DNA of 64,000 bases from an uncultured Sedimenticola sp. GTDB taxonomy: Bacteria > Pseudomonadota > Gammaproteobacteria > Chromatiales > Chromatiaceae. The notes beneath the pieces are model-generated. The model had not been told where the DNA came from. It saw only the letters and a list, made by a program, of their open reading frames with translations, and did no database searches. Location: the NCBI GenBank assembly GCA_964394235.1, contig CAYMWJ010000003.1:10896-74895 (forward strand). The letters run 5' to 3'. The position numbers and the translations under genes were made by a program. Shown in pieces: positions 6,099 to 48,408 of the stretch; within the stretch, counting starts at the first letter, position 1, and each line of letters begins with the position of its first letter.

Positions 6099-6230
6099 GC
6101 AGGAAGGTCCGCGCTTCGCCTTTTGCCATCGTCAAGCTCTGTGCGCTCTGTGTCCTCTGTGGTGAAGAATCAGGGGTACCAACGTATCTTCCATGATCAG
6201 GGGTGTGGTCGGCCCGCGTCATGAGAGTTG
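6099..6230 (+). repeat. Right half of the CTCTGTG-periodic repeat element
   Basis: Shares GCTTCGCCTTTTGCCATCGTCAAGCTC, CTCTGTG x3 and the ...CATGAGAGTT tail with the copies at 9144 and 31437. Confidence 0.85.
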
Positions 6231-6265
6231 GCCTCTTTGGCGACCTTCGCAGTTCCCCCGAAGCT

Positions 6266-6312
6266 CCCGTTCAAGAAGTCTTTGTGCTCTTTGTGTGCTT
6301 TGTGGTTACCCC
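6266..6312. repeat. CTTTGTG-periodic repeat arm
   Basis: Near-identical to 16..62. Confidence 0.75.
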
Positions 6313-6379
6313 TTCCAAAGCCTTTGCAGTTTTCACCCCCGGTTCCTATCGCGTCGTCGGCTCTCTACAATCCGCAGCC

Positions 6380-8371
6380 ATGATCTGGCTTGGCGTGGAC
6401 ACCGGCGGCACCTTCACCGATTTCGTCTGTTTCGACGAGGACGGTGGTGTGCGTGTGCACAAGGTGCTGTCGACGCCGGAGGCGCCGGAGCGGGCCATCC
6501 TGCAGGGCATCGCCGAGCTGGAGCTGCCACTCGATCGCTTGCAGGTGGTGCATGGCTCCACGGTGGCGACCAACGCGGTGCTCGAGGGCAAGGGCATGCG
6601 CACGGTGTTCGTCACCAATCGTGGTTTTGGTGATCTGTTGACCATCGGCCGCCAGGCGCGGCGCGCGCTGTACGATCTGCGACCGGTGAAGCGCCCACCG
6701 CCGGTGCCTCCGGAGGATTGCCTGGAGACCGGCGGGCGCATCGGTGCCGATGGCTCGGTGGTCGAGCCGCTCACCGACGACGATCTTGCCGCTCTGCGTG
6801 ATGCACTGGCCGAGCGCGATCCCGAGGCAGTGGCGGTCTGCCTGTTGTTCTCCTGGTTGCGGCCCGAGCTGGAGCAGCGCCTGCGCGAGGCCGTTCCGGA
6901 AGGCTGTTTCGTGTCGCTCTCCTCCGAGGTGTTGCCCGAGGTGCGCGAGTACGAGCGCGGCATGGCGACCTGGCTGAATGCCTGGGTGGGGCCGCGTGTC
7001 GCTGGCTACCTGCGCCGGCTGAGCGCGGGCCTGCCCGGGGTGCCGGTGTCGGTGATGCAGAGTGCGGGCGAGACCATGAGCGCCGAGCAGGCGGCGGGGC
7101 AGGCGGTGCGCATGTTGCTCTCGGGACCGGCTGGTGGACTGTTGGCGGCGCAGCACCTGGGCGAGCGCGCCGGTTTCGATCGCCTGCTCACCTTCGACAT
7201 GGGCGGCACCTCGACCGACGTGGCGCTGATCGAGGGCGAGCTGGCGTTGACCAGCGAGGGGCGCATCGGCGACTGGCCGGTGGCGGTGCCCATGATGGAC
7301 ATGCACACCATCGGCGCCGGTGGTGGTTCGATCGCCTGGATCGACGAGGGCGGGATGCTGCAGGTGGGGCCGGAGTCGGCGGGCGCCGATCCGGGGCCGG
7401 CCTGTTACGGACGCGGGGGTGAGCGGCCCGCGGTGACCGATGCCAACCTGTTGCTTGGCCGCCTGCAGGCCGACGCCTTCCTGGGTGGCGGCATGCGCCT
7501 GGACCGGGCGGCAGCGCAGCGGGCCATGCGACCGATCGCCGAGGCGCTGGGCGGTGACCTGCTGGCCGCTGCGCGCGCCGTGATCGATGTCGCCAATGCC
7601 CACATGGCGCGTGCCTTGCGGGCCATTTCCATCCGGCGTGGCGTGGATACGCGGGGGCATCTGCTGGTGTCCTTCGGTGGCGCGGGCGGGTTGCACGTGT
7701 GCGAACTGGCCGAGGCGCTGGACATGCGCCAGGCCATGGTGCCGGCGCATGGCGGCGTGCTCTCGGCGCTGGGCATGCTGGTGGCGCGGCCGGGGCGCCA
7801 GTTGTCGCTGACCCTGATGCGCAGGCTGGACGAGGCGGACCTCGAGGCGGCGGTGGCCGATGCCCTGGAACGCCTGCGCGAGCGGGCGGCGGTCATGCTG
7901 GCGCCGGAAGGTATCGTGCTGGAGCGGGCCGAGGTCGTGGTGAGCGCCGATCTGCGCTATCGCGGCCAGTCGCATACCCTGAACCTGCCGTGGGAGGGCG
8001 CGGTACGCACGGCCTCGGCCTTTCACGCGCGGCACGCCGAGCGTTACGGCCATGCCCTCGACCAGCCGGTGGAGCTGGTGACCCTGCGCCTGGCGGTGCG
8101 CGGCGAGGGCTGTGGCTTCCGCCTGCCGAACTGGCGGGCGGACGGCCAACCCGATCCGCAGCCCGTGTCGGTGCCGGGGTGTGGCGAGGTGTCGCTCTAC
8201 CGACGCGAGACCTTGCCGCCGGGCTTTGCCTTCGCCGGCCCGGCGATCGTGGCCGAGCAGGTGGCTACCACCTGGGTGGCGCCGGGCTGGTGCGGCCGGG
8301 TGGACGATTTCGGCAATCTGTTGTTGCAGCGTGACTGGAACGAGGGCTGTTCCGTGCGGAAGCCGGGATAG
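6380..8371 (+). CDS. Hydantoinase/oxoprolinase family, A (N-terminal, ATP-binding) subunit
   Basis: GVDTGGTFTD, HGSTVATNA, SGPAGG, DMGGTSTD, IGAGGGS, GPESAGADPGPACY. Confidence 0.92.
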   Translation: MIWLGVDTGGTFTDFVCFDEDGGVRVHKVLSTPEAPERAILQGIAELELPLDRLQVVHGSTVATNAVLEGKGMRTVFVTNRGFGDLLTIGRQARRALYDLRPVKRPPPVPPEDCLETGGRIGADGSVVEPLTDDDLAALRDALAERDPEAVAVCLLFSWLRPELEQRLREAVPEGCFVSLSSEVLPEVREYERGMATWLNAWVGPRVAGYLRRLSAGLPGVPVSVMQSAGETMSAEQAAGQAVRMLLSGPAGGLLAAQHLGERAGFDRLLTFDMGGTSTDVALIEGELALTSEGRIGDWPVAVPMMDMHTIGAGGGSIAWIDEGGMLQVGPESAGADPGPACYGRGGERPAVTDANLLLGRLQADAFLGGGMRLDRAAAQRAMRPIAEALGGDLLAAARAVIDVANAHMARALRAISIRRGVDTRGHLLVSFGGAGGLHVCELAEALDMRQAMVPAHGGVLSALGMLVARPGRQLSLTLMRRLDEADLEAAVADALERLRERAAVMLAPEGIVLERAEVVVSADLRYRGQSHTLNLPWEGAVRTASAFHARHAERYGHALDQPVELVTLRLAVRGEGCGFRLPNWRADGQPDPQPVSVPGCGEVSLYRRETLPPGFAFAGPAIVAEQVATTWVAPGWCGRVDDFGNLLLQRDWNEGCSVRKPG

Positions 8372-8557
8372 CCACGACAGCATTCGGGATTCAGGTTCCG
8401 GTTCCGTCGAAGCCTTGCACTGGGCTGGCCGGCCGGCATGCCTGAACCTGCATCCCCTGGTGGCCCATTTCTTCCGTTTCTGGCTGTGGCTGACCACCGG
8501 CATGGTGACCGGCGAGTGGGTGCGGTCGTCGTCCGATCTCTGTCCGTCCCTGGACAA

Positions 8558-8587
8558 GCAAAAACCCGCCAGCGGCGGGTTTTTTGC
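8558..8587. terminator. Bidirectional rho-independent terminator
   Basis: gcAAAAACCCGCC-agc-GGCGGGTTTTTTgc between convergent genes. Confidence 0.85.
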
Positions 8588-46389: not shown

Positions 46390-46466
46390 TGGCGCGCCCG
46401 ACAGGATTCGAACCTGTGACCTTCGGCTCCGGAGGCCGACGCTCTATCCAGCTGAGCTACGGGCGC
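46390..46466 (-). tRNA. tRNA-Arg(CCG)
   Basis: GCGCCCGTAGCTCAGCTGGATAGAGCGTCGGCCT-CCG-GAGCCGAAGGTCACAGGTTCGAATCCTGTCGGGCGCGCCA; 77 nt with encoded CCA. Confidence 0.97.
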
Positions 46467-46671
46467 TGAGCAAGCCGCCCGCCAGGACGGGGACGGCGAA
46501 GAAGGTCTATTCTAACATCGACCGTTGCCTTCTGTGCAGCGGATTTGCCGTTCGTCGGGTACAGCGCTTTACAAAGGGGGGCACTCGACCATAGGATCCT
46601 TGGGGCTATATGGACAACTACTGTAAAGCCCTCCATCAGAAGGGGGACGTGCAAGACCTGGAGGAGTCGAA

Positions 46672-47220
46672 ATGGCGCGCAAGCTGACCTGGGCCACGGG
46701 CCTGCTGATCTTTTTCATGGGCATTGTCTTTACCGGCCTGTTCAACATGGGGCTGGCCTATACCAATGAGCTGGAGTTCTGTACCTCCTGTCATTCCATG
46801 CAGACCAATCTGCGGGAGTACAAGGAGACGGTGCACTACAAGAATGCCTCGGGGGTGCGGGCCATCTGTTCCGATTGTCATGTGCCCAAGGCTTTCGTCC
46901 CCAAGATGATTGCCAAGATCGCGGCGGCCAAGGATGTCTGGGGTGAACTCACCGGCAAGCTCGACACGCCCGAAAAATACGAGGCGCATCGCTGGGAGAT
47001 GGCCAACGCGGTCTGGGACAAGATGAAGGCGACCAATTCGCGGGAGTGCCGCTCCTGCCACGACTTTGGCGCCATGGCCTTCGACGAGCAGGACCGGAGC
47101 GCCCGCAAGCGCCACGCGCGCGCCGAGGAGCGAGGCGAGACCTGCATCGATTGTCATACGGGTATTGCCCACGAGGAGCCGGAAGAGCCAGAGGACGCCG
47201 CACAGGCAAGCGAGGGCTGA
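46672..47220 (+). CDS. NapC/NirT family membrane-anchored tetraheme cytochrome c
   Basis: N-terminal TM; CTSCH, CSDCH, CRSCH, CIDCH. Confidence 0.93.
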
Positions 47221-47221
47221 A

Positions 47222-48169
47222 ATGGCTAGAGACATGAGATTTTGGGCGGGGGTGGTCCTGGCATGGGCGCTGATCGGCCCGCTGGCGCTGGCTGCCGAGA
47301 AAGAGGTCGAATTGCGTGCCGCTGCCACCGTGGGCGATGTCGACTACATGCGCGAGTTGCTGGATCGGGGGGCTGACGTCGATGCGCCCAACAAGTACGG
47401 CAAGACGGCGCTGATGATGGCGGTGGAAAACGGCAATATCGCGGCGGCCTCGTTGCTGGTCTCCCGGGGTGCCGATGTCAACCGGCGGACCGTTGCCGGT
47501 TGTACCGCGCTGACCTTTGCCGCCGAGAACGGTGAGACGGAGTTGTCCGCGCTGTTGCTGGAGAAGGGGGCCGACATGGCGGCGCGGACGCGTGCCGGCT
47601 GGAATGCCCTGATGATCGCCAGCCGCTATGGCCTGGCGGACATGGTCGAACAGTTGCTCTTCAAGGGAGCGGAGACCGAGGTTGTCGACAAGGAGGGGCA
47701 GACGGCACTGATGATGGCGGCCGCCGGTGGGCATGTGCCGGTCCTGCGCCTGCTGCTCGAGCATGGGGCCAACATCGAAGCGCGGGATCGCCTTGGACGC
47801 ACCGCGCTGACGCTTGCCGCCTCGCATGGCCAGGTCGGGGCGATGAAGGAACTGCTGGCGCATGGCGCCGCGGTGGATGCCCCGACCAAGGACGGGGCCA
47901 CCCCGTTGATCTGGGCCGCCAGCCAGGGTCAGGAGGCCGCCGTGGCCCTGCTGTTGCAGGAAGGCGCAGATGTGAACGCGCGCGATGCCGATGGGGTGAC
48001 CGCCCTGATGGAGGCGGTCAATGTCCGTTCACCGGAACTCGTGAGGTTGCTGCTCGAGTATGGGGCCGATCCCTTGTTGCGCAACAGCGATGGCAAGACG
48101 GCTTACGAGATGGCCAGAGGCGGGCGCAACCGCCAAGTACGAGCGGTTCTCGAACGCTACATGAACTGA
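47222..48169 (+). CDS. Periplasmic ankyrin repeat protein
   Basis: Signal peptide; repeated G.TALM.AA..G...V..LL..GA.V units. Confidence 0.92.
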
Positions 48170-48408
48170 CGATCATGAACAGTCGCTTCCCATCACCTCG
48201 TAGATGCAAAGATGCGGTGGGTTCTTTCGTGGTCGTTTTTCACCACAGAGGACACAGAGCGCACAGAGATCAACGATAGCAAATGGCAAGGTGGACCTTC
48301 CCGCGGGCATCGGACGGACCGTCGGTCGCGGTTGACAATCCCGCCAAGACAGCCCTCGCTTCAACCCCTCTGTGATCTCCGTGTGCTCTGTGGTGTTGAC
48401 TTCCACAC
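48170..48408 (-). repeat. Inverted copy of the CACAGAG/CTCTGTG-periodic hairpin element
   Basis: ctctgtgatctccgtgtgctctgtggtgttgacttccacac is the reverse complement of the 9144/31437 left end. Confidence 0.85.

Follow-up and report, generated by a model that had tools for sequence, protein, structure and literature searches.

Heptamer hairpins in an uncultured Sedimenticola genome as possible gene-less relatives of GxxExxY cassettes

Hairpin repeats of the window and their arms

The stretch of DNA considered here (the window) comprises 64,000 nucleotides of an uncultured Sedimenticola species, namely positions 10896-74895 of contig C3 in assembly GCA_964394235.1 (G000: 2.49 Mb, 197 contigs, 65% G+C, 93% complete), and features eight copies of a dispersed hairpin repeat whose arms are built from three similar heptamers (Table 1). 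Two kinds can be distinguished, a CACAGAG subfamily and hairpins with CACRAAG or CGCMAAG words. Their architecture, their sites in sister species and their relation to cassettes in which such arms enclose a small gene of the GxxExxY (PDDEXK_3) family are described in the following.

Table 1. Hairpin-repeat copies in the window. Positions are those of the window; signs in parentheses give the orientation of the arms.
Feature	Position	Strand	Arms and landmarks
CACRAAG-class hairpin, right half	1-60	.	arm CTTTGTG-cg-CTTTGTG-tg-CTTTGTG at 30-54(-)
CACAGAG subfamily, truncated	6099-6230	+	core 6113-6136, arm B 6137-6161(-), tail end CATGAGAGTT at 6230
CACRAAG-class half element	6233-6310	.	degenerate CTTTGGCG/CCTTCGC arm, then CTTTGTG x3 at 6280-6304(-)
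CACAGAG subfamily, full	9143-9381	+	arm A 9158-9182(+), core 9261-9284, arm B 9285-9309(-), tail to 9381
CACGAAG-class hairpin	19185-19499	.	arms 19190-19214(+), 19470-19494(-); 255-nt loop
CACAGAG subfamily, full	31438-31679	+	arm A 31453-31477(+), core 31557-31580, arm B 31581-31605(-), tail to 31679
Degenerate hairpin	42034-42172	.	left CAGAGGA-CGCAGAG-CC-CACAGCG; right CTCTTTG-cg-TTCGGTG-tc-CTCTGTG at 42143-42167(-)
CACAGAG subfamily, inverted	48166-48407	-	arm B 48244-48268(+), arm A 48368-48392(-), diverged tail 48166-48240

A search of the window with the pattern CACAGAGNNCACAGAGNNCACAGAG, allowing at most three mismatches, yielded 11 matches compared with none expected from 100 dinucleotide-preserving shuffles. 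All copies listed in an earlier note on this DNA are present, with the arm coordinates given in Table 1. Throughout the assembly, 146 runs of CRCRRAG at a period of 9 nt were found, 145 of them consisting of exactly three heptamers, and 143 of these 146 arms are intergenic according to gene calls based on codon usage, which cover 89% of the genome. The three-heptamer arms at 9-nt spacing and their intergenic placement, both proposed in that note from the few copies of the window, are hence features of the whole genome. Arms less than 300 bp apart nearly always follow each other in the order plus then minus (CACRRAG x3 ... CTYYGTG x3), the reverse order never occurs, and the word class is identical in both arms for 45 of the 46 close pairs. 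The two bases outside the first heptamer are an invariant AC, mostly within TTCAC, AACAC or TAAC, which lengthens the stem and overlaps a TAA or TGA in about 30 arms. The general form of an arm can be written as (T)T[C/A]AC + [CRCRRAG + 2 nt] x3.

The fold suggested before, a hairpin with mismatches at the spacers, was confirmed for the copy at 31440-31620, with a folding energy of -86.6 kcal/mol as RNA (z = -6.5) and of -43.6 kcal/mol as DNA (z = -5.8). Its stem is a succession of 7-10-bp helices interrupted by 1x1 or 2x2 mismatches at the spacers. This strong stability and the intergenic placement speak for structures selected by the host, e.g., RNase III or mRNA-stabilizing hairpins or protein-binding arrays, instead of selfish DNA, in which case the gene-bearing cassettes described below would be a side issue. 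Convergent gene pairs are moreover enriched for arms (10.6% vs. about 4%), the spacer between gltD and hemE keeps a hairpin in each of six genomes despite differing word classes, the 19185-19499 hairpin stands in place of terminator-like hairpins of the relatives, and in about ten cases an arm ends 10-16 nt upstream of a gene start, with GGTGA in the position of a ribosome-binding site. Nevertheless, species that share about 91% identity differ widely in copy number, from none to about 35, and relatives feature empty sites without visible consequence. The loop lacks compensatory pairs, no T-run follows the arms, and no match was obtained in Rfam 15 at the gathering score, the window giving only a tRNA at 46393-46466. 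Host selection as the origin of the repeats is thus regarded as unlikely, and its evidence is compatible with a secondary role after insertion. Judged from sequence features, such a secondary role of the arms in transcripts is plausible. The hairpins were also considered as general donors of a Shine-Dalgarno sequence to the gene that follows, which was discarded, as it applies to only about 10 of 139 arms.

The CACAGAG subfamily and its sites in sister species

Members of the CACAGAG subfamily measure about 242 bp and are composed of two arms, a 103-nt loop and a 75-nt tail. About 35 copies occur in the studied genome, with 72-87% identity in BLAST comparisons. Their parts follow each other as a head (RTGTGGAAGTCAAC), arm A (..CA/TA..AT..), the loop, which ends in a conserved core, arm B (..GA/AA..CG..) and the tail, which ends in CATGRGWGTTA and folds as a second small hairpin. 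An alignment of 34 copies of this main subfamily showed sharp ends, so that both the size of about 240 bp and the conserved core with an asymmetric tail outside the arms, as described in the earlier note, are borne out, and the alignability of the copies, which that note had left to be tested, is confirmed. The 24-nt core GCTTCGCCTTTTGCCATCGTCAAG occurs exactly three times in the window (at 6113, 9261 and 31557). The ends are asymmetric, with 18 nt before arm A and the 75-nt tail after arm B, and are not mutually inverted. Many copies feature TTAG or TTAA on their left and GTTAR at their right end. RNAalifold applied to 24 copies revealed no compensatory pairs in the loop beyond the invariant arms. 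Besides, the conserved core was considered and rejected as a peptide gene, as the minus-strand ATG becomes ATA in several copies.

The distribution of this subfamily was compared with two sister species represented by complete genomes, G004 and G007, which are about 91-92% identical to the studied genome over flanking genes. The roughly 35 copies are opposed by three full-length-like copies in G007 and none in G004, the arm and subfamily counts of G004 covering its first 2.4 Mb, in which 37 arms were found. The copy at 31438-31679 is absent from both relatives and leaves a clean empty site there, GCGATAG|TGCCGG, as against GCGATAG[TGTGAAAG...GAGTTAG]TGCCGG in the window, with TAG(TG) at both junctions. 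The site of the 48166-48407 copy is reduced to 16 bp in G004 and is therefore empty, albeit not clean. When the joined flanks of 30 subfamily copies were searched in G004, the relative aligned straight through the junction at 12 sites. Two of these twelve junctions are clean, that of 31438-31679 (TAG/TAG) and one on contig C187, where TTTAG precedes the element, TTTAA stands at its end and a single TTTAG is found in G004. The remaining ten straight-through sites show extra small indels or a different short spacer.

CACRAAG hairpins behave differently in the same comparison, with 14 of 22 syntenic sites filled by something of similar size in G004 and four aligning through, which on inspection hold a hairpin or other spacer sequence and include no clean empty site. 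This contrast between occupied and straight-through sites makes the CACRAAG hairpins look older and places the multiplication of the CACAGAG subfamily after the split of the species, i.e., as far as can be read from the genome sequences, the subfamily multiplied recently and in this lineage. The suggestion that the repeat is a non-autonomous mobile element thus gains support from presence and absence between sister species and from a lineage-specific burst (0, 3 and about 35 copies), and the empty-site comparison proposed for it gave the twelve straight-through sites with two clean junctions.

Among mobile elements, a classical miniature inverted-repeat transposable element (MITE) comes to mind first, with the 27-32-nt arms as terminal inverted repeats, an IS5- or IS630-like DDE transposase encoded elsewhere and a duplicated TA, TAG or TTAG target. 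The pairs are indeed inverted, small, non-coding and intergenic. The two clean empty sites with TAG vs. TAG and TTTAG vs. TTTAA at the junctions and the TTAG or TTAA left of many copies with GTTAR at the right end would fit as well. Nevertheless, the tail lies outside the arms in the 242-bp subfamily, so that the arms are not terminal there (in the simple CACRAAG hairpins they may be), and no DDE_Tnp_1 or DDE_3 gene was found in the studied assembly by a search for the IS5/IS4 and IS630 types, other transposase families not being searched. Likewise, no transposase recurs beside 120 arm loci of other phyla, and the recurrence of one arm design around unrelated loops in different phyla does not resemble deletion derivatives of a single insertion sequence. 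An explanation as classical MITEs is consequently rated as improbable, even more so than selection by the host.

Cassettes with a GxxExxY gene in the genus

The gene tied to the arms encodes a GxxExxY protein. Of the nine other genomes of the genus, seven gave matches to TIGR04256, in each case at a single locus which lies exactly between CRCRRAG x3 and CTYYGYG x3 arms. The search for a GxxExxY gene with flanking repeats, as suggested in the earlier note, thus proved fruitful. The open reading frames (ORFs) extracted from G004 and G001 comprise 123 amino acids and match Pfam PDDEXK_3 with E = 4e-42. In G001 and G007, the gene occupies the gltD-hemE spacer between CACAGAG arms, while G002 to G006 carry it in the leuD-leuB spacer between CACRAAG or CGCMAAG arms. 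The gltD-hemE spacer of the studied genome holds a gene-less CACRAAG hairpin (C36:12565-12743), and gene-less hairpins also fill it in G002, G004 and G006. Altogether, this spacer features a hairpin in all six genomes inspected, in three word classes and with or without the gene, i.e., gene-bearing and gene-less forms occur at the same orthologous position.

The association extends beyond the genus. In a family-wide test of 29 GxxExxY loci from 19 other genera, in which arms were defined as 8-10-nt periodic units with an alignment score of at least 34, periodic inverted arms were detected at 21 loci, compared with 0.8% of 250 control windows taken from the same loci.

The cassettes show further features of their own. 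A segment of about 50 nt homologous to the subfamily tail (AATCCGAGGTGTGGGCCGTCCGCCTCTTGAAGGTTTA) forms part of the cassette leader in G001 (C227), where it stands between the left arm and the start of the GxxExxY gene. The tail-like segment is hence located inside the cassette in G001, in contrast to its position outside arm B in the studied genome, where the tail is almost always joined to arm B. In G007, the GxxExxY gene (C1:2532480-2532823) is split by a frameshift or stop, and the gene of G006 contains an internal TAA, so that the cassette gene is decaying in some species with the arms intact.

To our knowledge, no function has been assigned to the GxxExxY (PDDEXK_3) proteins, which form a very large and unusually conserved family. 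With the protein encoded at L132:4780-5148 as query, at least 7,945 relatives were counted among 8,000 candidates scored, many of them at 73-91% identity. Such values over 123 amino acids were observed between contigs labelled as Planctomycetota, Acidobacteriota and Deltaproteobacteria, and as the identity is unusually high for such distances, the sequences suggest a frequent horizontal spread of these proteins. The residues D67, E77 and K79 of a D...ExK motif are invariant in an alignment of 26 sequences. An AlphaFold (AF2) model reached a predicted local distance difference test (pLDDT) of 92.8 and a predicted template modelling (pTM) score of 0.86. No solved structure matching the protein by sequence was found, and the best neighbours in the PDB are weak (E about 7e-3, template modelling (TM) score 0.59), comprising Cas4 SSO0001, MGME1 and lambda-type exonucleases, all of which are PD-(D/E)XK nucleases.

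One small nuclease-type gene per genome, itself flanked by inverted repeats, together with many short intergenic hairpins and a lineage-specific copy number, recalls the repetitive extragenic palindromic (REP) sequences, their hairpin-forming pairs (REPINs) and the REP-associated tyrosine transposase (RAYT). An actual membership in this group, i.e., a REP/REPIN or IS200/IS605-type single-strand element served by a Y1 HUH transposase and inserted 3' of a TTAG-like tetranucleotide without duplication, would agree with the left TTAG/TTAA and right GTTAR of many copies, as the target then resembles the right-end cleavage site, and one Y1_Tnp gene does occur in the studied assembly. Yet this gene adjoins a different, classical REP (GCGAGGACGCCGCTCCTACCGTAGGAGG) on a contig without heptamer arms, G004 combines 37 arms with no Y1_Tnp match, and arms are found in phyla where no Y1 neighbour recurs. 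The arm design of AC followed by three CRCRRAG units at a 9-nt period is not the short imperfect palindrome with a conserved 5' GTAG-type tetranucleotide; the GxxExxY protein has a PD-(D/E)XK fold (PDDEXK_3) instead of Y1 HUH, and the repeats consist of three periodic heptamers and not of a GTAG-containing REP. This membership is accordingly the least probable of the alternatives and very doubtful. The search for a cognate RAYT or HUH gene flanked by the repeat thus ended at a single Y1_Tnp gene beside another REP, and the related proposal of a single-stranded DNA recombination substrate found no direct support; the sole Y1/HUH gene is without flanking arms, and no such gene was found by the search in G004 with its 37 arms. 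The Y1 gene itself is RAYT-like (MVPVYHGKDL...PDHVHWLL), spans C150:2290-2744, runs off the contig end and is preceded by the REP GCGAGGACGCCGCTCCTACCGTAGGAGG. Copies of this REP were also noticed inside the loops of some heptamer hairpins (G007 L016; G000 C28).

The explanation preferred here treats the hairpins of the window as gene-less, non-autonomous members of a hairpin-cassette family which in sister species includes a small GxxExxY nuclease gene, and we judge it about evenly poised between right and wrong. According to it, the hairpins would spread as selfish DNA, namely as non-autonomous derivatives of the cassette which are copied by a process recognizing the arm structure. The obvious candidate for this process is the single-copy nuclease, because it is itself flanked by arms and in analogy to RAYTs and REPINs. 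It would act in trans on the hairpin or cruciform formed by the arms, comparable to one RAYT gene serving many REPINs. Copies inserted into a transcribed spacer may, through their long imperfect stem, also serve as sites of RNA processing or stabilization.

Several observations weigh against this explanation. The studied assembly, 93% complete and with its leuD-leuB spacer in a contig gap, gave no TIGR04256 match, and G008 combines 48 arms with no GxxExxY match. As the leuD-leuB spacer falls into that gap, an absence of the gene from the studied genome is not established. The break between the end of C155 and the start of C156 lies at heptamer arms, and C156 begins at the ATG of leuB. Both leuD and the spacer are missing from the assembly, and the same spacer holds the GxxExxY cassette in five sister species. 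Furthermore, ORF clustering beside the 120 CACAGAG-arm loci of other phyla revealed no recurrent neighbour gene, only housekeeping families; one of these loci (L132) has an adjoining GxxExxY gene. The protein, a predicted nuclease with a modelled PD-(D/E)XK fold, has only a putative action on the arms. With regard to the arms, no covariation was detected between paired arms at the variable position 4 within a word class, and the spacers of paired arms pair less than in shuffled partners, which argues against perfect pairing as the conserved trait. This mismatch pattern fits a process that recognizes the repeated words themselves or a helix interrupted by internal loops at regular intervals. 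Finally, most of the empty sites are not clean and the hairpin often stands in place of another short spacer, so that allele replacement by recombination fits the replaced sites as well as insertion does. For part of the pattern, the exchange of entire spacers between strains by homologous recombination has to be taken seriously as an alternative, but it cannot account for about 35 different loci.

Distribution, catalogued repeats and individual copies

Within the genus, the triple-heptamer pattern was recovered from each of the other nine genomes. The family adds five further genera, three of them with appreciable numbers, and 16 other families of the class yielded no match, the reversed pattern as control giving 0-1 matches. 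Contigs with the exact CACAGAG x3 pattern nevertheless number more than 120 and come from a very wide range of phyla, among them Planctomycetota, Acidobacteriota, Chloroflexota, Cyanobacteria, Bacteroidota, Firmicutes, Desulfobacterota and several classes of proteobacteria; the pattern often forms inverted pairs whose loops are unrelated. In G011, a member of another genus of the family, many contigs contain long tandem arrays of the nonamer CGCAGAGGG with up to eight or more units, and the unit number is therefore not fixed at three everywhere.

Repeats of this type are already catalogued. The "Nonanucleotide repeats" of Geobacter bemidjiensis, with the consensus TTT[WCCTCTGTG R0-1 Y0-1]n GTGAG, were listed as features Gbem_R9001 to R9068 without explanation, mechanism or link to a gene (Aklujkar et al., 2010; PMC2996986, Additional file 6, Table S6). 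They share the word CTCTGTG, the 9-nt unit, the GTGA(G/A) after the last unit and the multicopy intergenic occurrence with the repeats studied here, which differ by three fixed units, by arms paired as hairpins and by one subfamily with a 103-nt loop and a 75-nt tail. The statement that the repeat could not be assigned to a named class is accordingly valid with respect to REP, enterobacterial repetitive intergenic consensus (ERIC) and MITE, and is too broad in view of the CTCTGTG nonamer already catalogued in Geobacter bemidjiensis (PMC2996986, Table S6). In Xanthomonas, convergent pairs of tandem heptamers (GGGAATC) were described without mention of intervening sequences (IVS), S23 or a nuclease (Rehm et al., 2015; PMC4692102). 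These pairs and the IVS of 23S rRNA (S23p/IVP, PF05635) likewise form a stem from inverted arrays of 7-nt words, but feature a 7-nt period and a variable unit number, while the gene tied to the arms of 8-10-nt period here is GxxExxY. IVP genes in this bacterial family are flanked by 7-nt tandem arrays. A link of the present repeats to IVP was considered and dropped, with no PF05635 match in the studied assembly and none beside the 120 CACAGAG-arm loci. MITEs resemble the repeats in being small, non-coding and intergenic, with inverted repeats, presence or absence depending on the strain and, at two clean junctions, short direct repeats; asymmetric ends, the lack of a cognate transposase among those searched and arms conserved across phyla with unrelated interiors set the present repeats apart.

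A link between such repeats and GxxExxY was not found in the literature searched. New in this study are the comparison of gene-bearing and gene-less forms in the same genus and the same spacer, the dating of a burst within a composite subfamily, the first examples of clean junctions and the negative tests for RAYT, DDE transposases and IVP. Hairpins of tandem heptamers or nonamers fill intergenic spacers in many bacterial phyla and have been listed unexplained in genome papers since at least 2009-2010. They also break short-read assemblies, as exemplified by a contig of the studied genome which ends exactly at an arm. The genus offers a clean natural experiment, with 0, 3 and about 35 subfamily copies in three species at about 91% identity and with one and the same operon spacer occupied either by a nuclease cassette or by a hairpin lacking the gene. 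If the GxxExxY nuclease mobilizes the arms, this would provide a function for a protein family of many thousands of members, an origin for a common class of bacterial repeats, and a compact pair of structure-specific nuclease and target to study. In a wider and more tentative generalization, which we hold to be possible but would not expect to be correct, GxxExxY proteins may supply the nuclease for a class of mobile hairpin cassettes that spans phyla and is as yet undescribed. The gene-less derivatives of this class would be the heptamer and nonamer repeats catalogued, yet left unexplained, in Geobacter, Xanthomonas, cyanobacteria and many metagenomic genomes, and the RAYT/REPIN arrangement would have been invented independently a second time.

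The CACRAAG/CGCMAAG hairpins feature unrelated loops of 48-255 nt. The left arms of the copy at 1-60 lie just upstream of the window (C3:10795-10861), and its inner segment (CCCNCGAA..CCCG.TCAAGAAG) is that of the half element at 6233-6310, which is conserved in both G004 and G007. The 19185-19499 hairpin lies between convergent genes; in its place, G004 and G007 have a short hairpin (112 or 48 bp) of unrelated sequence. The degenerate hairpin at 42034-42172 is present in G007, and G004 has 222 bp of other sequence instead. At 48166-48407, the inverted copy is tightly enclosed by the stop codon at 48167-48169 on one side and a terminator-like hairpin on the other. The truncated copy at 6099-6230 lacks arm A and most of the loop. 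Compared with G004, which has an autotransporter-like gene here, 2.1 kb are deleted, and the copy sits at the junction of this deletion. That several copies border accessory DNA, as stated earlier, applies to the variable block at 4300-6230, which differs among the three species, and not as a general property. In G004 (C1:322500-324950), the gene in question encodes a HAF-repeat/autotransporter-like protein of 680 amino acids, of which only the 3' end is retained in the window (about 5723-6073, minus strand). The break of the HAF-repeat gene lies exactly at the truncated CACAGAG element (6099), G007 carries yet another hairpin there, and the 4300-6230 spacer is a rearrangement hotspot.

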